DNA from: an uncultured archaeon | GTDB taxonomy: Archaea > Asgardarchaeota > Heimdallarchaeia > Heimdallarchaeales > Kariarchaeaceae | Direction of reading: 5' to 3' | NCBI GenBank assembly: GCA_964645535.1 | Contig: CAZYCQ010000082.1 | Coordinates: 1 to 10,255, forward strand | Length of the DNA: 10,255 bases | Shown here: one piece after another, positions 1 through 10,255 of the stretch | How the letters are laid out: each line of letters opens with the position of its first letter | Numbering within the stretch: the first letter of the stretch is position 1 | The notes under the pieces: generated by a model | What the model saw: the letters and a program-made list of their open reading frames with translations, nothing else | The model's database searches: none | What the model was told of the DNA's origin: nothing | Made by a program: the position numbers and the translations under genes

Positions 1-326
1 GCCTTATAGTCTTTTGGATTTACATTATTATTTTTTGCGACAGTAAATAACCAATGTTCCAAATCTTTTTCGAACTCAATGATTATTGCATTATGATACC
101 TGTAGACGGAAATACCATATTTGTGGTCAAGTAAAACGGAGCCCTGTAATTCAGCGTTTAAATTTTGATTGTCCTTGTCGATAATTCCTATTCCTGATCT
201 GTTTTCTCTGATTTTTCGTATGACTCTAGGCTTACCACCAACATGGTCGATACTGAGATCAGTTTTCTTATGTTTGAATAGTTTAAACATATGTGTATCG
301 TTGTCGCATTCGACATGAACCATCAT
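1..326 (-). CDS. TOPRIM-like (OLD/AriB-like) nuclease, partner of the adjacent ABC ATPase; 3' end lies outside the window
   Basis: My translation from ATG 326 is MMVHVECDNDTHMFKLFKHKKTDLSIDHVGGKPRVIRKIRENRSGIGIIDKDNQ...IIIEFEKDLEHWLFTVAKNNNVNPKDYK, open to the edge. It has an N-terminal hVE-x-x-x-D motif, a GGK turn, a DxD motif (IIDKD) and a later LE-x-W motif. It overlaps the ATPase stop as ATGA and has a GGAGGAG SD about 8 nt upstream. It is absent from the ORF track because its stop is outside the window. Confidence 0.75.
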   Translation of the reverse strand, partial: MMVHVECDNDTHMFKLFKHKKTDLSIDHVGGKPRVIRKIRENRSGIGIIDKDNQNLNAELQGSVLLDHKYGISVYRYHNAIIIEFEKDLEHWLFTVAKNNNVNPKDYK

Positions 327-1384
327 GTGGGTAACTCCTCCTCTTCCCCGAATAACATGCCAATATTCATGATTAGATCTATTTCGTTGATTTGCCTTAC
401 TTGGTCCTTGGAGAGCAGTTTGAATTCCGATTGGAAATCCTTGTATCTAGAAACGAAGAGGTTAAGGTCATCTAGATCTACTTTGCTAATCAAATTTTCC
501 AAGAAATATGGATTATGGGTGGTCAGAATGATTTGGTTTCCTTTTTGAAAAGGATTTTTCGCAATGTCTTCTGCAAGATCAAGAATATGTGAAGGGAACA
601 TGAAGGATTCCGGTTCATCAAAACAGAGGATGGAATTCTTGTTTGATAGAAGTGCCATGTAATAAAAAATTGATGCTTTTAATGTATCAGAAAGCAATTG
701 TAAGGGAAAGTTTACCACTATGTCGCCCTCTTGCTTCTGAAAAAGCATTTTTTTCTCAGCAATTTCAAAAACAACACGATAACCAAACAATGAGAAAAGA
801 TCTCTGATAAATTCTCTTCTTTCCTTGGATGCCCATATTGTTTGGAAGAGGTTTCTCCCATCGGGTGGTCTTAAGGTTGATCCTTTTTGGCTATCTATAT
901 CTACATCGAGATTAATATTTGTACTGAAATTATAGAATTTTATGGATTTGAAATCTATCAGTTCGTCTATATCCCAAAGGGTCAGGATACCATCATAGCC
1001 GATCTCAGCAAGGGTTTTATCATTCTGTTTTTTTTGTTTCTTGACAACTTTTATTCCTTCACTGTCTCCTTGAATTGTTAATTGTAGATTTTTTTGTTTT
1101 TCTCCTTTTGAATAACTTATTGAGATTTCAATTTCTTCATCTATATTCCGGTCATAGAACAAATCAATCCAAGAATTGTATCTGATTAAACTTTGCAGAT
1201 ACGAACCGAAATTATCTTCATCAACATTGGCAAAAGCTCCTAAAAACGCAAGTAGTTCAATTACATTTGATTTCCCGGTATTTGTATCTCCTATAAGCAC
1301 TGTTAGCTTGTTGAATTGCATAGTAACGGCTTTAAGGCTTTTGTAGTTTTTCACAGTAATTTTTTTGATGAACATTATACTCAT
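323..1384 (-). CDS. ABC-class ATPase (AAA_15/AAA_21-like; OLD/AriA-type)
   Basis: N-terminal IKKITVKNYKSL, Walker A GDTNTGKS (1268-1291), degenerate signature LLSDT, Walker B/D-loop ILCFDEPESFMFP and H-loop LTTHNPY. No transmembrane segments. Alternative start at ATG 1375. Confidence 0.9.
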   Translation of the reverse strand: MSIMFIKKITVKNYKSLKAVTMQFNKLTVLIGDTNTGKSNVIELLAFLGAFANVDEDNFGSYLQSLIRYNSWIDLFYDRNIDEEIEISISYSKGEKQKNLQLTIQGDSEGIKVVKKQKKQNDKTLAEIGYDGILTLWDIDELIDFKSIKFYNFSTNINLDVDIDSQKGSTLRPPDGRNLFQTIWASKERREFIRDLFSLFGYRVVFEIAEKKMLFQKQEGDIVVNFPLQLLSDTLKASIFYYMALLSNKNSILCFDEPESFMFPSHILDLAEDIAKNPFQKGNQIILTTHNPYFLENLISKVDLDDLNLFVSRYKDFQSEFKLLSKDQVRQINEIDLIMNIGMLFGEEEELPT

Positions 1385-1412
1385 CTCGATTTTCTATACA
1401 AAAGGATTTCTC

Positions 1413-2561
1413 TTACAAAGGAAATACCTTTTTTCTTCGGGGAAATCTAGATCCCTGCTTGTTACTTCCTTCAATGAACTCAGTGAGCACTTCCCAATCT
1501 GGTCGAAGTGGTACCTTGGTCGTCCTCATCCTTTTTGGAGAAATTTTAATTTTCACTCCTTGAGGTAGAAATTGTGATCGTAAGACAAGAGCCACTGCAA
1601 CGAATAATTGGTTGTCAAGTTTATGAATCTTGATGAATAAGGGAGATGCTCTTCGTGTCATTTCTTTAGAATCTGGTTCTACGTTGACCTTGAAACCGTC
1701 CGAACCAAAGAAATAGTTATGTGGCAAACCAAAGATTACACGTTGCGGGTGAACCTGAGGCTTTTGACCCTTCTGTATCTCCCTGATGAGGTCATGGTCT
1801 GATTTGAAATTCCTTTCCGCAGATTTCCCCATCACTTTACCATTTCTCCCATAGCTTCGATATAAAGCCATTTGTTCTCCTACTAAATTGAGAAGAGTCA
1901 ATGCGTTTGTATCGTTTTCAAGAATATCAATTCTAGTAAACGCACTGAAAGCCGAAAAAGGAGGTTGTGAATTTAATCTCCCGATATTATTTGATTTGCA
2001 AAATTCGTTGATTTTTTTCTCAAGGGAGTTGATGGCTTTTGGTTGACTATAGAATATTTTTCCATCTAAACTTATTTTCCGGAAATTGATCGATCCGTAC
2101 CCTTTTCTCGCGCGTGACCCCATGTTACCAAAGAGAGCAAATGCGGTGAGGGCTTGTTGAAGTTCATTTAACTGATCTTGTTGCAATCCTCGGCAGGCAA
2201 TTGTAATTCTTCCAATTGTGTTTGGTGAGATATACTTTCTTTCTGGTCTACCACTATAATGGATCACCCCATATCCAAGATAGACCAAACCGCCTTTGTT
2301 TTTAAAATTAACCCTTGTTTGCCCTTGCCTATAACTTTCCAGATTTAGGTGGATTCGGGAGGCATTATTGGTTGATCCAAAGATAAAATCTTCTTTCTCC
2401 TTGAGTTGTTCCAGGCTTTTCAATTTGGCAAAGGCAACGGCTCTCCACCAGAATCTGAGTGATCCTTTAAAACTTGGCAACCTGAACTCAGCTGTTTTCT
2501 GGTTACTCCCAGCAATGAACATTGGTGTCACAATTTCGAAATCTATCGTAAATTTGTGCAT
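1413..2561 (-). CDS. cmr1: Type III-B RAMP protein Cmr1 (Cas7 group)
   Basis: Motifs VTPMFIAGS...EFRLPSFKGSLRFWWRA, E..IFGS, G-rich loop FGNMGSRARKGYGS, FGLPH and RRASPL. GGAGG SD upstream. Confidence 0.95.
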   Translation of the reverse strand: MHKFTIDFEIVTPMFIAGSNQKTAEFRLPSFKGSLRFWWRAVAFAKLKSLEQLKEKEDFIFGSTNNASRIHLNLESYRQGQTRVNFKNKGGLVYLGYGVIHYSGRPERKYISPNTIGRITIACRGLQQDQLNELQQALTAFALFGNMGSRARKGYGSINFRKISLDGKIFYSQPKAINSLEKKINEFCKSNNIGRLNSQPPFSAFSAFTRIDILENDTNALTLLNLVGEQMALYRSYGRNGKVMGKSAERNFKSDHDLIREIQKGQKPQVHPQRVIFGLPHNYFFGSDGFKVNVEPDSKEMTRRASPLFIKIHKLDNQLFVAVALVLRSQFLPQGVKIKISPKRMRTTKVPLRPDWEVLTEFIEGSNKQGSRFPRRKKVFPL

Positions 2562-2566
2562 TGATT

Positions 2567-3340
2567 CTATCCTCCAACTTTTCTCATTTCAATTCGACCA
2601 TACCCTACCGCGGTTTTCCCACCGATGCCGAAATTCAGGAGATGTTCTTTGATTTGTGAAGTTACCCTTTTAAGGTTATCTTTTTGAAGACCATTCCTGT
2701 CTTTGGTGCGACTCAGTATACCCCAAAGGAATTTTGACCCCTTTGAAACTGTAATGAATTGAATGGGAATGGGATTGTACCAGTCTCCTGGAGGAGATGT
2801 ACCACCTGACGAGTAGTAAGGTTGATAATGAGGTGTCATAATATCCAATCTCAATTTGACTGAAAGGGGTATCGCATCAAGGAATACGAAATCGTCTACC
2901 TTTTTGTCTTCTTTGGCATTGTTTTTGCTTTCTTTCTTCTCCTCTTTTGCCTTGGCTTGTTCTGAGGCTTTCCAGATTCCCTTAATGGTAGTGCCTGGGA
3001 TAAACGGAAGACCTTGAGTATGGTCGAAGGTGAAACCGTTTTCCATGGGGTGGGCATTTCCCATACCTATGATAAGATCGGACATGCACTTCATTTCAAA
3101 AAGAAGTCCATTACTTTTTCGAACCATTTTCCGGTAACGCAGGTTGTATTCGTCTTTTGAATGGATGTTATTGAATTCCTTAATGTAGGCATTTATCCAT
3201 CCATGTGATTTAGAAATTTCCTTGTTAATGTTCCAAGGAAAGTACTTGTTGAAAACAAGTCCCATGTTTGCTGCATTGCTGATTGGTCTCCTTCCATAGG
3301 TTGGCATTGGCACGATTTCTTGATCCTTATAGTTAATCAT
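2567..3340 (-). CDS. cmr6: Type III-B RAMP protein Cmr6
   Basis: Motifs LIIGMGNAHPMENGFTFDHTQGLPFIPGTTIKG, FLDAIP, DIMTPHYQPYY, PGDWYNPIPIQF and GIGGKTAVGYG. I moved the start to ATG 3340 (257 aa), which overlaps the cmr5 stop by 8 nt and has a GAGAGGGA SD. Confidence 0.93.
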   Translation of the reverse strand: MINYKDQEIVPMPTYGRRPISNAANMGLVFNKYFPWNINKEISKSHGWINAYIKEFNNIHSKDEYNLRYRKMVRKSNGLLFEMKCMSDLIIGMGNAHPMENGFTFDHTQGLPFIPGTTIKGIWKASEQAKAKEEKKESKNNAKEDKKVDDFVFLDAIPLSVKLRLDIMTPHYQPYYSSGGTSPPGDWYNPIPIQFITVSKGSKFLWGILSRTKDRNGLQKDNLKRVTSQIKEHLLNFGIGGKTAVGYGRIEMRKVGG

Positions 3341-3794
3341 TCGAATCCCTCTCAATCGTGGCGTTGGCAAATCGCTTGACCCATTGAAGAAGGAGAAGTG
3401 CCTCCTCCTGCGCACGCATGTACGTCATTTGGTCAGAACTAATGATTTCGTCTATTACCTGTAAGGGAGATGGCTCGTCCTGTATCCCGTACACCCTTTG
3501 CAGAATCCACTTGCTGACGATCCCATAGAGTTTCTTGTGGGCTATTTCATCAGGTTTGTCTTTTTTTTCTTCTGTGGACTCTGAATCATTCGCATTATTG
3601 TCTTTTTTCCCCACCTTTCCGTTTGCAGCTTCCATCGCAAGGGCCTGACCTAAACCGTTTCGTACAATGATGGCTGGTAAACTTTCAACATAGCTGCGAA
3701 ATTTCTTGGCAATGTTTAGATCACCTTCTGCAATTTCTTGAACTGCTTGCAGAGCTAATTGGGCTCGTTCATGATCAAGTGTGATTGCTGTCAT
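3333..3794 (-). CDS. cmr5: Type III-B small subunit Cmr5 (Cas11)
   Basis: Motifs TLDHERAQLAL, FRSYVESLPAIIVRNGLGQALA and YMRAQEEALLLLQWVKRFA. GAGGTGAT SD upstream. Confidence 0.93.
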   Translation of the reverse strand: MTAITLDHERAQLALQAVQEIAEGDLNIAKKFRSYVESLPAIIVRNGLGQALAMEAANGKVGKKDNNANDSESTEEKKDKPDEIAHKKLYGIVSKWILQRVYGIQDEPSPLQVIDEIISSDQMTYMRAQEEALLLLQWVKRFANATIERDSND

Positions 3795-3805
3795 ATCAGA
3801 TCACC

Positions 3806-4609
3806 TCAGAACCGAACCTCCGAGAAGAGGCAGATCCCTTGGCCAACGGTCTCATTACCGCCCAATTGAACGTAATCTTGACCGAATTTTTCGAACAGGG
3901 GATCATCTTCACCATTGCGGGAAAAGAGCATGGCATAAAAGACAGTGTCAGTTGCGACCCATTCCTCGTACCAGAGGTTTTTGCTTGTCTTGGTTTCACT
4001 CTTCAGCACATTTCTTGCTTGGATCATGAGGCCATATTTCGCGAACCACTTGAAGTCATTATCATGAAGAACTATAAGCTGATCCTTTACTCTTTTTTTC
4101 GTCGATTCATGGGGGATGAATTTCTCAAAAATAGTCGTGATCTCCTCGAAACCCGTATTGCCTTTCCGCTTGAACTCTCTGTCTTCAAGAACAATTGATC
4201 CGTGATCCGGTCCGACATATTCATTCCGCCCGACTTCAGGGACAGGAATCTTGGTGTCATTCCCAAGAACTTCGAGGTCTCGGTTGAGACGTTCAAGCAC
4301 ATAGGGACAGGTTACCCAATAGTACGTTTTGGATAGGCTCCGGATAGGGAGCATTAGCAATCTTCCATCAGAGAAGACTATATTGCCAGCATTGTCTTGG
4401 GTACCAAAAGAGCCACTTAGTTTATGATTGGCGTCGTCATGGTTTACCTCAAAATGGTGCCTGAGGCTTCCCTTTATCCCTGTTCCGGGAATGAAGGGAT
4501 ATTCTGTAATTCCTTCACGGGCAAAGGGCAGGTCCACGAATGTCTCGGATCTCCCTATACCCACATGCATCTGTGTTTCAGCAAATATTGATAGCATTTT
4601 TCCTTTCAT
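3806..4609 (-). CDS. cmr4: Type III-B backbone RNase Cmr4 (Cas7)
   Basis: Motifs ETQMHVGIG...VDLPFARE (H15 and catalytic D26 retained), PFIPGTGIKGSLR, DGRLLMLPIRS, WVTCPYVLER, LWYEE and QLGGNETVGQG. GGTGAT SD upstream. Confidence 0.96.
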   Translation of the reverse strand: MKGKMLSIFAETQMHVGIGRSETFVDLPFAREGITEYPFIPGTGIKGSLRHHFEVNHDDANHKLSGSFGTQDNAGNIVFSDGRLLMLPIRSLSKTYYWVTCPYVLERLNRDLEVLGNDTKIPVPEVGRNEYVGPDHGSIVLEDREFKRKGNTGFEEITTIFEKFIPHESTKKRVKDQLIVLHDNDFKWFAKYGLMIQARNVLKSETKTSKNLWYEEWVATDTVFYAMLFSRNGEDDPLFEKFGQDYVQLGGNETVGQGICLFSEVRF

Positions 4610-4615
4610 GGTCTA

Positions 4616-5731
4616 TCACCACGTTCCAACAAGAAATTGGCCAAATCCAAATCTAGTGAATTGACCAATCTTGGTTCTTGAACCTGCTAAAATCTCCATT
4701 TCTTGAGTTTCTTCCGCCCTAAAGAAGAAGACGCTTCCCGCAGGCACGAAAGCATCAAGTTGTATGGGTTTATTACAGAACATGTTCCACCCCCCTATCC
4801 GTAACGGTTTTCCGACGGTTGACCCTATGAACCTGACATCATTCAATTGCAGATCCTCTACAAGGGCATCGAGGACATTTATTCTCTCATGGTCATCGTT
4901 CATATTCGGTCGATAATGGGTGAGGAAATAGATAAAGAATTTGCATCCTTGATCGTCTTTGTTCAACTGCTTAATTTTTGGCAATTCCAGTTGCTTATTT
5001 TCCTCGAGCTTGATGACCCCAAATTTGCCTTCCCCACCTAAGGGAGTCACTAACCTTTGAAATTGCAACTTATCTGATGATTGAAGGTACATTGACAGGT
5101 TTACTTTTTCCCTGAACCGAACGTATTCTCGTGTAAAGAACCCTCTCTCATTGGCTGAGCTCTTACTTCCAATCTCCAAAAACACACCCGGTTGAAATTC
5201 TCCTTCATGAAAATCAGAACCCTTCCATAATTGCTCAATTGGTTGTGCAGTTTCTAGGTTAAGGAACCCCTTAAGTTGTTCAAGTGTTATATATCCGTCC
5301 TTTATGTTGTCAAATGAACTTGAATTGTTCGTTCTCAGTGGATGGACGGGCTTTTCTGCACTTGGAATTACCATATTCACGCTTTCATCGGGACGGAGGA
5401 AGTTAAAGCCCTCTTCTTGCTTGACAATAAAGTTCGGGGCAGGTACAAATGTTTTACCGTCCTTTTCGATGAATGGTCCGAAGAAATCCAACGGTTCAAT
5501 ATCATGGATGTCCTTTCCAACTAGGGCTGCGATGTCGTTATTCCATTTGCCTTGACCATTCCAACCGTTTTCTCGGGCAATGGCTGCACGGAACGCTCCG
5601 ACTAAGGTAAATGCGCTGGGCGGAAATTGTCCTCCGATAACCTCCCAGGTTTTCGCAAACCTGTCAAAGGGTGCATTTGCCCTGAAAAATAAACGATCTA
5701 CTTGCTCAAAAACTACTTTCTGTTTATTCAT
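4616..5731 (-). CDS. cmr3: Type III-B Cmr3 (Cas5 group)
   Basis: Motifs DRLFFR..PF, FPPSAFTLVGAFR, GPF, PAP, LGGEGK, IGGWN, VPAGSVFFF and GFGQF. Overlaps the cmr2 stop by 8 nt. Confidence 0.94.
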   Translation of the reverse strand: MNKQKVVFEQVDRLFFRANAPFDRFAKTWEVIGGQFPPSAFTLVGAFRAAIARENGWNGQGKWNNDIAALVGKDIHDIEPLDFFGPFIEKDGKTFVPAPNFIVKQEEGFNFLRPDESVNMVIPSAEKPVHPLRTNNSSSFDNIKDGYITLEQLKGFLNLETAQPIEQLWKGSDFHEGEFQPGVFLEIGSKSSANERGFFTREYVRFREKVNLSMYLQSSDKLQFQRLVTPLGGEGKFGVIKLEENKQLELPKIKQLNKDDQGCKFFIYFLTHYRPNMNDDHERINVLDALVEDLQLNDVRFIGSTVGKPLRIGGWNMFCNKPIQLDAFVPAGSVFFFRAEETQEMEILAGSRTKIGQFTRFGFGQFLVGTW

Positions 5732-7571
5732 ACTTCCTCACATTCTCCCTGTAAAACTTCAGGAATCTAATGAACCCGAAATTATAGCCATTTTCAGTTC
5801 CTGAACCCCGTTTCCTGATTTTGCAAAGATCAATCAGTTCCTTGCAGGTCTTTTTCACCTCAGGCCTGTTTTTCAACCCCTCTTCTTGATTTATCTCCCT
5901 GCTGGAATAATATTTCGCCACCAATAAATCTGCAATGATTGGATCATCTGCCTCAAATCCTAATTTCTCCAGAATACCAATTGTCTGATAGAAGAAGGAA
6001 TTGCTGAATTTATACCTGTCAATCTGCTTTTCCAAGCATTCCAATCGCGTGAGAACCTTTTGATTCTTTTCATCAAACCATGTAGATACCCATTGGTGCT
6101 TGGTTGTGGATGGAAAGAGAACCGATATTGCGAAACTGGATCTGCCGTTGCCATCCTTGGCTACCTCGTCAAGCTGGTGATGTGCCTCCTGAAGGGCAAC
6201 ACGCAGAGGAAGCTTGTGATGGGTCATCACAATCCCTGCTGAAATGGTCGCTTGAGTTCCCAATATTTGCTGATATGATTCTTGGATTTTTGAGGCACAA
6301 TCTAGAACCTTGGTTATGGGAAGAATGGCCAATACATCGTCACCTCCTGCGTAAATCAGTTTCCCTTCATACTTCTCTACAGTATCTGGAACTCCTTTAG
6401 CAAATTTGCCGAGGTTCTTGCTGATTTGATTAGGATCCTTGGCTTCTGAAAAGAGTTTTCCGAGTGAATCGCCATCCATGAGTAGGATTGCATAGAAGGT
6501 TCCAGGTGTATTTTCCAATTCTTTGTATATTTGTTGTAACTTAAAAACAAGTTCAGCTCTTCCCTTTTCATCTTGCAAATCCAGGTTCTTTAGAGAATCG
6601 GGGTAGTATGCATCACTGGTCAAACTGAAAAACAAGGGTTTCTCAGATTGTTTTTTCGTTTCATATGGGTACTCCACATACTCCACTATCTTGTTGGCGT
6701 AATCATCCATTAGATCCTTGGTCTCCTGATCTAGCTCATCAAATTGCTTCTCAATCCAAGTCAACCAAGGAAGTGCAGCAAAGTATGTGGTGGATGGATA
6801 ATTCAGAAGTTCAGCTTTCAATGCCGAAAGGTTGTAAGTGTTCACCAACCATTCGGGAAATAGACGTTTGATTGTGCCCATTGCAGAAAGCCATTCTTCC
6901 TCATCAAAATCTGAAACAGATCTTTTACGGGCTCGGTAGGCTTCGCTGAACGTTCTCCAGAATTTTCTCCGATCTTGATTTCTGAACTCACCTGAAAGAT
7001 CCGCCAATTCCCCGAACATGGTACATCCTACCCATTCTTCTGATGGTGGAAGTGTCAAACGATTCAGCTTGCCAAATTTATCCCTTCCTAGCCTGTCAGA
7101 AACCGTCCAGTTGAGTGTCCAATAGGAATTGACTTGGCGTTGCCATATCTTCTTCTGTTTATCTGTCAACAAACCTTGAGGTAGCATCTTAAAAATTTCG
7201 TCGGCAATCTTCTTCCATGCATCCCAAAAAGAACTCTCAATATACTTAGCGAAAGCAATTGCTGCTGTTTCATTAGAATTCTTGACTTCTATCTTGAAAA
7301 AGTGAGGAAGTGACCCAAACAAGCTGCCTTCCCCTTTCAAATTACTTTCCTTGACCAATCCAATGAGGGTGTCATTGCTCAGATCAACATACGGTGACAC
7401 AATATTGGCATCAATGTTCTTCAAATCCCTGTATTCCTCAAAAGCTGTAATCATTGATGCAGAAAGGTAAGACAGCATGAACGAACCCGCCCAGAGATCC
7501 CGAGTCTTTCGAACCTTTGAGATGAATTCTTGCACAGGGTTAATGGTAACTTCAATAAAGAGCGAACTCAA
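5724..7571 (-). CDS. cas10: Cas10/Cmr2 large subunit; cyclic oligoadenylate synthase lacking the HD domain
   Basis: Begins at PVQEFISKVRKTRDLWAGSFMLSYL. Palm2 motifs are YAILLMDGDSLG and LIYAGGDDVLA (GGDD at 6336-6347), followed by ATISAG. TTG start, 615 aa; an in-frame TAG shortly upstream excludes an N-terminal HD domain. Confidence 0.96.
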   Translation of the reverse strand: MSSLFIEVTINPVQEFISKVRKTRDLWAGSFMLSYLSASMITAFEEYRDLKNIDANIVSPYVDLSNDTLIGLVKESNLKGEGSLFGSLPHFFKIEVKNSNETAAIAFAKYIESSFWDAWKKIADEIFKMLPQGLLTDKQKKIWQRQVNSYWTLNWTVSDRLGRDKFGKLNRLTLPPSEEWVGCTMFGELADLSGEFRNQDRRKFWRTFSEAYRARKRSVSDFDEEEWLSAMGTIKRLFPEWLVNTYNLSALKAELLNYPSTTYFAALPWLTWIEKQFDELDQETKDLMDDYANKIVEYVEYPYETKKQSEKPLFFSLTSDAYYPDSLKNLDLQDEKGRAELVFKLQQIYKELENTPGTFYAILLMDGDSLGKLFSEAKDPNQISKNLGKFAKGVPDTVEKYEGKLIYAGGDDVLAILPITKVLDCASKIQESYQQILGTQATISAGIVMTHHKLPLRVALQEAHHQLDEVAKDGNGRSSFAISVLFPSTTKHQWVSTWFDEKNQKVLTRLECLEKQIDRYKFSNSFFYQTIGILEKLGFEADDPIIADLLVAKYYSSREINQEEGLKNRPEVKKTCKELIDLCKIRKRGSGTENGYNFGFIRFLKFYRENVRKYE

Positions 7572-7730: not shown

Positions 7731-9083
7731 TCATTCCAGATGGCTAGGATCTTCCTCTTCGTCTTCTCTCAAACTTTCTAGATATTCTCTGAACAAATCT
7801 CTGAGTGTTTCCCTTAACTTGTCTGCATTTCTTGGACTTCTCCTGAACCCTCCATGGTTCATGTCATTCCTCGGTTCCTTTATCTTGTTGTAGGCAACTA
7901 TATCTGCATCAAAATGCTTTTTGATATACTCAAATTTCTTCTCGTCAATCCTGTTAGGTTTCTTCAAGTCACTGCCAACCTTTTCAATAATTGCCATATT
8001 GATAAAATCCTCCACCTCTTCCCTTTCAGTTTCGTTATAGATGTCTGCATTTTTGTCTAACTCCAACATAATTCGGGTAATAATAAGCTCCCTGAGAAGC
8101 GTAAAACCTTGTTGCACAAGATCGTGCTCTATGCACCAGAGGATGGCAACCAATTGGTTCTTGATCTCCTTACGGAAAGGAGCTTCCATATCTATCCCAT
8201 TGGTTTCCAAAAGCTTCCGTAATTTCTCAATGAATTGGTCAAACAAAGATTCATAGACCTTGGGGAATCCCTCTGGAAACTCTTTCTTATCAAGAAGCTT
8301 GGCAAAATCAAGCTTGTCAATATCTTGCCCTCTCACAAACTTGACCGCGCGATTGAACCTTGTCAATTCCTGCTCTCGTAGTGTGAATTGTTTCCCCAAC
8401 TCTTTCATTTTTTTGGAATAAATTTTCTTCCGTTCCTCATTGAAAAGGTAAGTTAACCGGGATACGTCTCCTGTCTGATTGAATATGTCCGCCGCAGAGG
8501 TCAACTCGTTGAGGAACACGAATGAAGAAAGATCAACTACTGGAACCAATCGGTTCTTGAGGGGTATACTCTCTATCTGCTGCCGTGTCCCAAGAGTTTC
8601 AAATGCCCCGTATACCACCCGATTGATGGAAGCCGACTTAAGGAGACCTGAGTAGTTGAAAATCACCGATGCAATGAATGGCATGGATCGAAAGCTGTGG
8701 GTAATATCAAAGGATATCTCATCTTCCACGTCAATCAATTTGTAAATAGTCTCAAATATTTCCATTACTTCGGCTTCCGTAAACCCTTTTGGTATGGAAA
8801 CCGGAACAATTGTTACGTTTGAATTGGTAGATCTGAACCTTTCATCTCCAATTTCCGTTAATTTTGCCGTTACATTTTTCCAGTTCCTCTCTCTTGCATC
8901 GTCTGTCATCAGTATGTAAAATCGATCTTCGCTTGTCCAATCTGTACAAAACAGCTCTATCAACGCCAATTGGATGTAGTTGGTAGCCGAAGCTATTCTT
9001 TGACCAGTTCCCTCTCCACAATAATAGTGGACCTCCTCGTAATATCCAAATCCCAAGAAAGAAAAGAACACCTTTCTCCCCAT
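7731..9083 (-). CDS. csx1: Csx1 (TM1812-type) CARF-HEPN cOA-activated ribonuclease
   Basis: N-terminus MGRKVFFSFLG...Y, CARF motif FDITHSFRSMP (DxTH[G/S]), YGAFE, PVVDLS and C-terminal HEPN motif RNDMNH (R-X4-H, 7854-7871). The true start is probably ATG 9083 (450 aa) or 9089, not 9419. Confidence 0.92.
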   Translation of the reverse strand: MGRKVFFSFLGFGYYEEVHYYCGEGTGQRIASATNYIQLALIELFCTDWTSEDRFYILMTDDARERNWKNVTAKLTEIGDERFRSTNSNVTIVPVSIPKGFTEAEVMEIFETIYKLIDVEDEISFDITHSFRSMPFIASVIFNYSGLLKSASINRVVYGAFETLGTRQQIESIPLKNRLVPVVDLSSFVFLNELTSAADIFNQTGDVSRLTYLFNEERKKIYSKKMKELGKQFTLREQELTRFNRAVKFVRGQDIDKLDFAKLLDKKEFPEGFPKVYESLFDQFIEKLRKLLETNGIDMEAPFRKEIKNQLVAILWCIEHDLVQQGFTLLRELIITRIMLELDKNADIYNETEREEVEDFINMAIIEKVGSDLKKPNRIDEKKFEYIKKHFDADIVAYNKIKEPRNDMNHGGFRRSPRNADKLRETLRDLFREYLESLREDEEEDPSHLE

Positions 9084-9165
9084 AAGCATCAAAACAGAAT
9101 ACTGATATTTTAAGTTTCCAGAATTGAGGCAAAATTTTTTTAATAATCCTGCAAATTCAATCCAT
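9084..9165. promoter_or_regulatory. Divergent promoter region between csx1 and csx15
   Basis: 82-bp AT-rich gap. Minus-strand GGAAA-CTTAAAATA (9119-9106) lies about 25 nt before the csx1 ATG. Plus-strand AAAA-TTTTTTTAATAA (about 9131-9146) lies about 20-25 nt before the csx15 ATG. Neither gene has an SD, consistent with leaderless archaeal mRNAs. Confidence 0.45.
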
Positions 9166-9654
9166 ATGGCTGAAGAACTAGCAATGAAGGCAACTGTATC
9201 TGCCGTCCAAAATGCAGGACCCGCAGTTGCAAATCGATTAAAAGCACTGTTTTCAAGGAAGAAAAACAAATTTGCAGGTTTCCCTCTTCTTAACCTTTCA
9301 GGCCATCCTCTCACCAGTAAGGCAATCTCGATTCTTGAAAGCGAATTCGGTATAAACCAATTGCAGATTATCGAGATCAAGGTAGGATCCGTGAATGTGA
9401 AAAAAATTATCGATTTCACCGAAAATCTCGTCGAGCAGATTTACGAAAAGATTGGTGATAAATTGTTGACCGGTGAATATCTTGTCATTCCACCAGGATT
9501 TGCGCCACTCTCCCTGTCCCTTTTTGCATTCCTGCATGGCATAACCGGTCATTTCCCCCATATCGTCATTCTTCAAAAAGAAAACACTACCTACGTTCCC
9601 ACAAGTGTGATCGATCTCCAATCAATTCGGGATACAGCAAGAGAATCAAGATGA
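9166..9654 (+). CDS. csx15: Csx15-family CRISPR-associated protein (putative cOA ring nuclease) with an N-terminal extension
   Basis: Motifs LLNLSGHPLT, LVIPPG, FLHGITGHFP and IDLQSIRDTARESR match the Csx15 pattern as I recall it (N-x-S-HPL ... LHG-x-x-G-x-FP ... LQ-x-x-R-x-x-AR). Adjacent to csx1. Start at ATG 9166 (162 aa) or 9184. Confidence 0.78.
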   Translation: MAEELAMKATVSAVQNAGPAVANRLKALFSRKKNKFAGFPLLNLSGHPLTSKAISILESEFGINQLQIIEIKVGSVNVKKIIDFTENLVEQIYEKIGDKLLTGEYLVIPPGFAPLSLSLFAFLHGITGHFPHIVILQKENTTYVPTSVIDLQSIRDTARESR

Positions 9655-10009: not shown

Positions 10010-10255
10010 ATGTGTGGTTTGGGAATTGATATGATTCTCCAACTTCATGGGCTGACCTCTTCAAATTTTTGGTACGATTCTGAAAGTGCAGAATTCTCCA
10101 TCTCCACTTCGGGAAAATGGCCTGTACAATCTCGGATTCGCGCACGTGCGTTTTCAGAAATCCTTATTAGAAAGGCTGAGAATGGAGAAAACATAACGGT
10201 CTCATTGACTGAGAATCCTAGAAATAGGTTGAAACTAGTGGGAATGCTATCCAAC
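10010..10255 (+). CDS. Hypothetical protein, truncated by the window edge; strand uncertain
   Basis: The plus frame is open from ATG 10010/10031 to the edge (MILQLHGLTSSNFWYDSESAEFSISTSGKWPVQSRIRARAFSEILIRK...) and follows an AT-rich intergenic stretch. The antisense frame (10045..10254, minus) is also open. Confidence 0.3.
   Translation, partial: MCGLGIDMILQLHGLTSSNFWYDSESAEFSISTSGKWPVQSRIRARAFSEILIRKAENGENITVSLTENPRNRLKLVGMLSN

Follow-up and report, generated by a model that had tools for sequence, protein, structure and literature searches.

Does a pair of coupled genes at the end of a type III CRISPR operon belong to the CRISPR system, or is it an independent defence module that has come to lie there? 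This question is raised by a stretch of DNA from an Asgard archaeon in a hot-spring metagenome (bases 1-10,255 of contig CAZYCQ010000082.1, here C82, in a genome of 3.6 Mb that is 89% complete, here G000), which we refer to at its full length as the window. The list of open reading frames (ORFs) places csx1, the cmr genes, an ABC ATPase gene and a small ORF with TOPRIM motifs on the minus strand alike. A preliminary description of the window had read the last two as a PARIS-like or split OLD nuclease and had suggested that they might be a type III accessory. In architecture we indeed regard the pair as the two halves of an OLD nuclease on separate polypeptides, an arrangement shared with PARIS, but we assign it to a separate, unnamed family. 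We consider it somewhat better than an even chance (a probability of roughly 0.55) that the two genes are a self-contained defence cassette, which was captured in the CRISPR locus of one genus and is not a general CRISPR accessory.

Identification of the small TOPRIM protein

The protein encoded by the small ORF has no match in Pfam, NCBIfam or PADLOC. The fragment of it preserved in the window carries the sequences VECDND, GGK and IIDKD, which had been singled out earlier as TOPRIM motifs, and a search of 1.84 billion representative proteins (cut-off E<=0.001) recovered 26 matches of 139-177 amino acids (aa), apart from the repetitive 357-aa protein P0006. Full-length homologues measure 147-177 aa, typically about 155 aa, against the 108 codons of the window's fragment. 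In an alignment of 29 family members E6, D10, H28, E90 and W92 are invariant and C7, K32, D50 and D52 nearly so, and all of these residues are present in the window's fragment. E6 occurs in every member of the 29- and 54-homologue sets, and each of the acidic residues D10, D50, D52 and E90 in all or in no fewer than 90% of them.

For structural comparison a model was made of P0004, a full-length homologue 62% identical to the window's fragment, for which AlphaFold2 (AF2) returned a predicted local distance difference test score (pLDDT) of 93.8. A Foldseek search of this model against the PDB gave nothing at E<=0.001, and a comparison of the TOPRIM profile with the sequences of solved structures gave spurious coiled-coil matches only. 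Exhaustive structural alignment (VIA) of the P0004 model against 48,161 chains ranked Thermus OLD first (Z 8.6), followed by GajA (7.5), Burkholderia OLD (7.3), retron Eco2 (6.1), PH0156/DUF3226 (6.0) and AriB (5.9). All six are OLD-family or OLD-related TOPRIM domains, with unrelated Rossmann-like folds scoring at Z 5.6 or below, so that the structure search proposed earlier as a test of the TOPRIM assignment came out in its favour. The alignment with Thermus scotoductus OLD (6p74) covers 112 residues, within chain residues 372-523, at a root-mean-square deviation of 2.7 Å. Likewise, an Atlas search placed the OLD-like_TOPRIM cluster (PF20469; template modelling score 0.63) ahead of DUF3226 (0.54) and DUF4435 (0.49). 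The moderate structural scores, together with the conserved acidic residues in the expected order, support the identification of the small protein as a TOPRIM domain of the OLD type. A TOPRIM fold has a parallel sheet of four strands with flanking helices, and OLD-type members bear a glutamate after strand 1, a DxD motif and further acidic residues for two metals; by their order along the sequence the acidic residues of the small protein appear to fit this set.

The ABC ATPase

The protein encoded directly upstream matches AAA_15 (3.3e-20) and AAA_21 (2.7e-16) in Pfam. Among the PADLOC models HEC-01A (7e-22), AriA (1e-21), AbiLi (1e-18), PDC-M07A, Old and GajA all match it at 1e-13 to 1e-22, with none clearly ahead, and the NCBIfam MADS3 model matches at 2.9e-11, with 43 bits against a cut-off of 420 bits. 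The ATPase motifs are intact and comprise Walker A (G32-S39), Walker B with the catalytic glutamate (D256-E257), the H-loop (H290) and an LSDT variant of the signature motif; each of these is invariant in 54 homologues, including G32, K38, E257 and H290. A sequence search among solved structures gave no match.

In the AF2 model (pLDDT 91.5) the protein forms a head without a coiled coil. Its best structural match by VIA is an SMC head (Z 20.7), the SMC and Rad50 heads together spanning Z 17.7-20.7, and these are accompanied by retron PtuA-type ATPases (18.5), Thermus OLD (6p74, 17.4), PtuA (17.4), GajA (16.2) and AriA (8ux9_B, 16.1). These scores do not separate the AriA of PARIS from other defence ATPases. 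As judged from its model, the protein is an ATPase head of the SMC/Rad50/OLD type. No CARF, SAVED or other signal-sensing domain was found in either the ATPase or the TOPRIM protein with Pfam, and the models show ABC and TOPRIM folds only.

Conservation and phyletic distribution of the gene pair

Both ORFs are real genes, because the small one has homologues (4e-37 and 8e-21) that in the relatives examined always lie directly after a homologue of the ATPase. The order ATPase-then-TOPRIM was observed in 10 of 10 loci of the relatives found first. A scan with an ATPase profile over one genome per prokaryotic species then confirmed 464 relatives, spanning Planctomycetota, Chloroflexota, Bacteroidota, Methanosarcinales, Thermococci, Bathyarchaeia, Thermoplasmata, Asgard archaea (under the names Promethearchaeota and Heimdallarchaeota) and others. 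The best 80 of these 464, from Bacteria and Archaea, have the TOPRIM gene directly downstream of the ATPase gene at 72 loci, and the two genes share a 4-bp overlap in 40 of 61 clean homologous pairs.

The occurrence of the pair is patchy, with 30 of 400 Asgard genomes (7.5%) carrying it and 15 matches, 8 of which are strong, among 351 Thermoproteia, and a quick tree of the ABC ATPases interleaves bacterial and archaeal phyla. Its neighbours vary from TIR-LRR and HerA-NurA genes in one genome to HNH, TPR or metabolic and housekeeping genes elsewhere. Decayed copies of the TOPRIM gene stand beside an intact ATPase gene in three genomes (G015, G088 and G016). Furthermore, a temperate virus, Geoglobus ahangari pleomorphic virus 1, encodes clear members of the two families in its products gp15 and gp16 (ATPase alignment 7e-141, TOPRIM alignment 4e-59). 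The metagenome contigs that encode the homologues P0008, P0016 and P0009 were too short for their gene neighbourhoods to be read. A plasmid collection yielded no match to a central family member, and IMG/VR yielded five weak ATPase relatives, at most one of them a likely member of the family. Pair conservation, patchiness, a mixed tree, varied neighbours, decay and carriage by a virus are together what is usually seen in mobile cassettes for defence or abortive infection.

Several individual loci deserve description. The viral genes, annotated as an AAA family ATPase (gp15) and a hypothetical protein (gp16), occupy positions 5364-6805 of the pleolipovirus sequence BK065157.1 (L189), where they are flanked by two genes for winged helix-turn-helix regulators and have a RelE toxin gene nearby. 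One Heimdallarchaeota contig (G035:C70, L014) bears two diverged whole pairs, at 1229-2723 and 12725-14219, which lie 11.5 kb apart with genes for an HNH endonuclease and a DnaB-like ATPase near them. Five complete crenarchaeal genomes (G768, G746, G787, G751 and G766; L151-L154, L157) share a conserved pair of an AAA_21/AAA_15 ATPase gene (product of about 300 aa) and an overlapping gene. The product of the latter has 172-209 aa and weakly matches the TOPRIM profile in its first 40-50 residues only. The distance of these pairs from Cas10 ranges from 28 kb to 1 Mb, except where the genome lacks Cas10, and they may represent a further mini-TOPRIM family.

Relationship to type III CRISPR systems

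The preliminary description had proposed to test whether homologous pairs are enriched beside type III loci, a lack of enrichment counting against its inference, and beyond a single genus they are not enriched. Of the 29 Asgard genomes that carry the pair, only G000 and G001, both from the window's genus, encode Cas10 (PF22335) on the same contig; outside this genus Cas10 was found beside the pair in 0 of 26 Asgard genomes. In the other bacterial and archaeal phyla Cas10 lies near the pair in 0 of 50 genomes, the single shared contig having the two 185 kb apart, and in Thermoproteia Cas10 and the pair occur together in 0 of 8. Many of the contigs behind these counts are short, and absence is undercounted in them. 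In a complete genome of the same order (G015) a cmr1-cas10-cmr3-4-5-6 operon and the decayed pair lie 183 kb apart. The pair family as a whole is not linked to type III systems.

The window's own locus has a complete signalling arm, since its Cas10 keeps the GGDD motif and the CARF-HEPN effector Csx1 is encoded upstream. No nuclease is obviously missing from it, and the earlier suggestion that the pair supplies the activity lacking from an HD-less Cas10 is not supported. The broader proposal of an accessory or guard role divides in two: it is not supported across the family, which shows no general linkage to Cas10, but it keeps a minor share of probability in the window's genus, where the pair has long been tightly linked to the operon and lies between cmr1 and a CRISPR array.

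It is only in this genus that the pair stands beside Cas10, at three confirmed loci (G000, G001 and L186) and one probable locus (G002). G001 has the order cas10-cmr3-4-5-6-cmr1-ATPase-TOPRIM, and L186, a Logan contig, holds the whole locus, csx1 included, with 83% identity to the window in Cas10, 81% in Cmr3, 78% in Cmr4, 69% in Cmr5, 66% in Cmr6, 66% in Cmr1, 76% in the ATPase and 63% in the TOPRIM protein. The probable G002 locus is divided between a contig that ends in cmr6 and one that starts at residue 21 of the ATPase, leaving cmr1 unassembled. In these relatives the TOPRIM gene is directly followed by the 37-nucleotide (nt) CRISPR repeat that also stands at the other end of the window, with five copies 55 bp past the stop codon in G002, and one copy with a leader-like flank at the contig end in both G001 and L186. 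In the relatives with known downstream sequence the pair lies inside the CRISPR-Cas locus. We interpret the linkage in the genus as the product of one capture event, or at most two, which is compatible with either co-inheritance or recruitment.

Three independent assemblies of a G002-like pair (L049, L050 and L051) all stop within the ATPase gene at one identical base, and this shared break hints at a repeat or at strain variation at the cmr1/ATPase junction. The five repeats after the TOPRIM gene of G002 (L017, G002:C211, 1502-1896) are slightly degenerate and have near-duplicate spacers, with a 122-nt unit repeated at 89% identity; they look like a decaying or duplicated array end. We also considered whether the window and L186, both of about 10.2 kb, might represent one circular element, as the L186 sequence beyond the TOPRIM gene matches the opposite end of the window. 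This was rejected, as their shared end consists of the CRISPR repeat and leader-like flank that recur at several arrays, and it was further ruled out by the G002 contig, which continues into ordinary chromosomal genes.

Comparison with known systems

PARIS constitutes class 4 of the OLD family, with the ATPase and TOPRIM domains on separate genes (PMC10568477, PMC12796447); AriA is of about 55 kDa and AriB of about 35 kDa, the latter with DUF4435 (PMC11464382, PMC13700489). The pair resembles PARIS in having its ATPase and TOPRIM proteins encoded by separate, adjacent and coupled genes, in the AAA_15/AAA_21 type of its ATPase (PADLOC AriA 1e-21; Z 16.1 to AriA), in the structural match of its TOPRIM protein to AriB (Z 5.9 to 8v46_D) and in its carriage on a mobile element or virus. 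It differs in that its proteins are of about 40 and 18 kDa, the TOPRIM protein having 147-177 aa against about 300 aa in AriB. DUF4435 (PF14491) gives no match to the window's TOPRIM protein at E<=10 or to the 29 family members at E<=0.1, and the PADLOC AriB model finds a weak match in 1 of 54 members (5.5e-5), over the first 70 residues only. Strict membership in PARIS is thus not tenable with a partner half the size of AriB and without a DUF4435 match. Activation by viral anti-restriction proteins, a 6:3 assembly and cleavage of tRNA-Lys are features of PARIS; the pair is known here from genes and models. Asgard archaea are reported to carry PARIS (PMC13700489); the present family would escape a PARIS screen that relies on AriB or DUF4435 models, because it matches neither of them here.

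Class 1 OLD proteins, exemplified by Thermus scotoductus OLD (6p74) and P2 Old, provide the best structural match for the TOPRIM protein (Z 8.6) and a good one for the ATPase (Z 17.4), and the acidic E...DxD...E set is present in the pair's TOPRIM protein too. However, OLD unites the two domains, along with a dimerisation insert, in a single polypeptide, whereas the pair is encoded by two genes and its TOPRIM protein is much smaller, with a C-terminal helical tail of its own.

A further likeness is to the small stand-alone TOPRIM-like proteins coupled to AAA_15/21 ABC ATPases, such as those of AAA_21+DUF4276 pairs and DUF3226 (PH0156, PDB 2p62). These share with the pair the motif logic E-[GC]-x-x-D, DxD and E-x-W, and PH0156 aligns with the P0004 model at Z 6.0. 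Unlike this structural resemblance, the sequence relationship to DUF3226 is not significant (best E-value 0.0075, in 2 of 29 members), and the pair's TOPRIM protein has no match to DUF4276. Contig C24 of G000 itself encodes a second coupled pair (L183:779-2523), with a 389-aa AAA_21/AAA_15 ATPase and a 192-aa DUF4276 protein (7e-8) bearing the motifs YVEGxxD, DSD and EIESW; hhalign of the TOPRIM family against this DUF4276 protein gave a probability of 1%.

Among CRISPR-associated modules the closest in arrangement are the crenarchaeal type III accessory pairs Cas_RecF+RFas and Cas ABC_ATPase+sRRM (Vestergaard 2014, PMC3973734; Shah 2018, PMC6546367), in which an AAA_15-type ATPase of about 300-420 aa at an archaeal type III locus is followed by one or more partners of 150-200 aa without a known domain. 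We found such modules of an ATPase and small partner near Cas10 in two crenarchaeal genomes (L167 and L177); their candidate partners, which stand in here for the published reference proteins, gave no match to the TOPRIM profile at E<=10 and none in Pfam. These modules are reported to be CRISPR-specific (PMC3973734, PMC6546367), whereas the pair family occurs mostly away from cas genes. The likeness to MAD3/MAD4 of the MADS system is weak (MADS3 43 bits against 420; PADLOC mad4 1.7e-3 in 2 of 54 members), since the scores fall well short of the family cut-offs and the surroundings contain no other MADS genes.

Proposed function and alternatives

In the reading that we prefer, the pair is a widespread and horizontally mobile cassette in which the gene for a mini-TOPRIM protein of about 155 aa is translationally coupled to that for an SMC/OLD-type ATPase of about 330-350 aa. 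The ATPase would dimerise on ATP and would hold or gate the small TOPRIM subunit. When an invading virus or plasmid provides a trigger, the TOPRIM protein would cut nucleic acid at a two-metal site that E6/D10, D50xD52 and E90 may provide; the substrate might be DNA, which OLD and Gabija cut, or tRNA, which AriB cuts, and the predicted outcome is defence or abortive infection. A single capture between cmr1 and the CRISPR array in one Asgard genus would have brought the cassette to its present position, where transcription of the cmr operon probably continues into it. The cassette would then be a neighbour of Cmr at one locus, possibly acting in synergy with it, but no general accessory of type III systems.

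A number of observations weigh against this reading. Within the genus the order cmr1-ATPase-TOPRIM-array is kept in G001, L186 and probably G002, the loci have co-diverged (43-83% identity in Cmr proteins and 44-76% in the pair), the spacers after cmr1 are short (18-39 bp) and on the same strand, and G003, of the same genus, has neither cmr1 nor the pair with the queries used here. In the quick tree the Cmr-linked ATPases form a clade set apart from 52 others by a branch of 2.74 changes per site, which could reflect a new function. The protein search returned close matches to the window's TOPRIM protein from G002 (62%) and G001 (44%) only; the Cmr-linked TOPRIM protein of L186 came from a separate search, and all other TOPRIM matches are 27-38% identical. 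The pair also lies close to an array in a second Asgard lineage, G039. At that locus (L020, G039:C211, 2369-5148) the array comprises 15 copies of a different 37-nt repeat, the degenerate last one being 85 bp before the ATPase gene, and no cas gene was seen on the 5.8-kb contig. The archaeal class 5 OLD protein Cran1 is essential in Sulfolobales and is not a defence protein (PMC12796447). Finally, the predicted complex passed weakly. For the complete G001 pair the interface score ipSAE was 0.36 against 0.00 for the best control, in runs that share at least 76% of contacts and have a partner pLDDT of at least 83; in the benchmark 58 of 80 solved complexes attained 0.36, as did 2 of 110 mismatched pairs, with scores up to 0.60 belonging to only 7 of the 80 solved complexes and to both passing mismatches. 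The modelling of an ATPase-TOPRIM complex, which had been called for earlier, thus lends it weak support, from the low zone of the benchmark.

The explanation that gains most from these observations is that the cassette was co-opted in this genus as an extra output or guard arm of Cmr, for example as an ATP-driven nuclease recruited by target-bound Cmr, or as one that fires when the complex or the cyclic oligoadenylate (cOA)/Csx1 pathway is inhibited. We regard such a lineage-specific accessory of the type III-B system as a possibility to be entertained tentatively. It draws on the position between cmr1 and the array kept, with co-divergence, in three confirmed and one probable species-level relatives; on the short same-strand spacers without a terminator-like site; on the very long, genus-restricted branch along which catalytic residues were retained; and on the joint absence of cmr1 and the pair from G003. 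There is precedent for it in the Cas_RecF+RFas and Cas ABC_ATPase+sRRM modules at archaeal type III loci (PMC3973734, PMC6546367), but the candidate crenarchaeal partners gave no match to the hidden Markov model of the TOPRIM protein (E<=10). Moreover, the linkage amounts to a single evolutionary event in one genus, for which co-inheritance of the locus is an equally good explanation, while the family at large is unlinked to Cas10 and the window's pair has no CARF or SAVED domain. The locus already possesses Csx1 and an active-looking cyclase, and the sequence of the spacer after cmr1 is unconserved and may hold a promoter of its own. A more far-reaching version, which we would advance only as a speculation somewhat less likely still, has the split-OLD cassette domesticated in this Asgard genus as the ATP-driven nuclease arm of Cmr or as a guard against blocked Cmr/cOA signalling, with the long branch marking the change of function and the family of TOPRIM proteins of about 155 aa making up an undescribed, widespread class of OLD-type defence.

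Two further explanations were considered. The pair could be an addiction or stabilisation module, in which the TOPRIM protein is a toxin held by the ATPase and the module stabilises the island or virus that carries it, here the CRISPR locus. The match to AAA_21, a family annotated as a putative AbiEii/type IV toxin-antitoxin component, the tight coupling of the two genes, their presence in a temperate virus beside a gene for a RelE toxin and the degraded TOPRIM genes with an intact ATPase gene in G015, G088 and G016 are all in keeping with this idea. Yet toxicity of the TOPRIM protein is hypothetical, the architecture fits ATP-gated defence nucleases better than classical toxin-antitoxin pairs, and the idea overlaps with abortive infection without excluding it; on balance we think it improbable. 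A housekeeping factor for DNA repair or chromosome maintenance of the Rad50/RecF/OLD kind, which the SMC and Rad50 heads as best structural matches of the ATPase and the example of Cran1 (an archaeal relative of OLD outside defence; PMC12796447) would allow, is the least likely of all given the patchy presence of the pair in 7.5% of Asgard genomes, its variable neighbourhoods, carriage by a virus and decayed copies. We accordingly retain the captured, self-contained defence cassette as the preferred reading.

Organization of the window

The coordinates of the features are collected in Table 1. They bear out the earlier observations that the ATPase gene begins 28 bp after the cmr1 stop codon on the same strand and that an ATGA overlap and a strong Shine-Dalgarno-like motif couple it to the small ORF.

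Table 1. Features of the window (positions in bases 1-10,255 of contig C82)
Feature	Position	Strand	Evidence or remark
Small ORF (TOPRIM)	3-326	-	5' two thirds of the gene, 108 codons; remainder cut by contig end
ATGA overlap of ATPase stop with TOPRIM start	323-326	-	ORF coordinates and sequence
ABC ATPase gene	323-1384	-	353 aa; directly after cmr1
GGAGGAG, Shine-Dalgarno-like motif	335-341	-	8 nt upstream of TOPRIM ATG
cmr1-ATPase spacer	1385-1412	-	28 bp, from cmr1 stop to ATPase start
cmr1	1413-2561	-	Last core gene of the type III-B operon; Pfam RAMPs 3.6e-16; PADLOC Cmr1 7e-37
cmr6	2567-3415	-	Pfam, PADLOC
cmr5	3333-3794	-	Pfam, PADLOC
cmr4	3806-4609	-	Pfam, PADLOC
cmr3	4616-5731	-	Pfam, PADLOC
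cas10/cmr2	5724-7571	-	Pfam, PADLOC; HD-less, GGDD intact
csx1 (CARF-HEPN, RNDMNH HEPN motif)	~7731-9086	-	PADLOC CARF_HEPN 6e-91; signalling effector of the locus
Leader-like flank beside the repeat	10111-10198	-	Conserved; recurs at several arrays
CRISPR repeat, one 37-nt copy	10199-10235	-	Pattern match, 0 expected by chance

The GGAGGAG motif doubles as coding sequence for the acidic tail of the ATPase, and in L186 a similar GGAGGA precedes the ATG of the TOPRIM gene. Homologues of the ATPase start at residue 4 of the window's protein, its second ATG (1373-1375), which may be the true start, and the spacer after cmr1 would then measure 37 bp. The corresponding spacer is 18 bp long in L186 and 39 bp in G001, its sequence being unconserved. 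No terminator-like site was found on the coding strand of the spacer in the window with a scan of the bacterial type (the host is archaeal), and a TTTTGTATAG stretch within it could be an archaeal TATA-like element. The start of csx1 probably lies near 9086, and the listed ORF of 562 aa (7731-9419) probably begins too early, because the PADLOC CARF_HEPN model aligns only from residue 116 onwards. A divergent ORF of 176 aa at 9124-9654 on the plus strand, without a Pfam match, fits upstream of the shortened gene, and L186 encodes a 161-aa homologue of it at the equivalent place.

Beyond the repeat contig C82 stops 20 nt into a spacer. The 37-nt repeat occurs in 46 copies in arrays on contigs C33, C69 and C82 of G000. 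Contig C69 starts with an array of at least 22 repeats of a variant identical to that in the window, and on the strength of this common variant C82 probably continues into C69; further arrays of the repeat are found on C33 and at C69:13616-14610. The remainder of the cut TOPRIM gene was not found on any other contig of G000. The window starts at base 1 of C82, and for an extension to the left the Logan contigs of the single run containing the stretch reach only base 45.

Biological implications

The window draws attention to a widespread two-gene cassette of an ATPase and a mini-TOPRIM protein, present in many archaeal and bacterial phyla and in an archaeal virus, which is absent from current lists of defence systems. 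Catalogues of such systems would miss the cassette because its nuclease partner matches no Pfam or PADLOC model. Its TOPRIM protein is the smallest OLD-type TOPRIM partner met in this analysis, and would be a convenient model for the gating of TOPRIM nucleases by ABC ATPases. The Asgard genus represented by the window, in turn, furnishes a clean natural test case for the question whether innate defence cassettes that come to lie in CRISPR loci become functionally wired to them.

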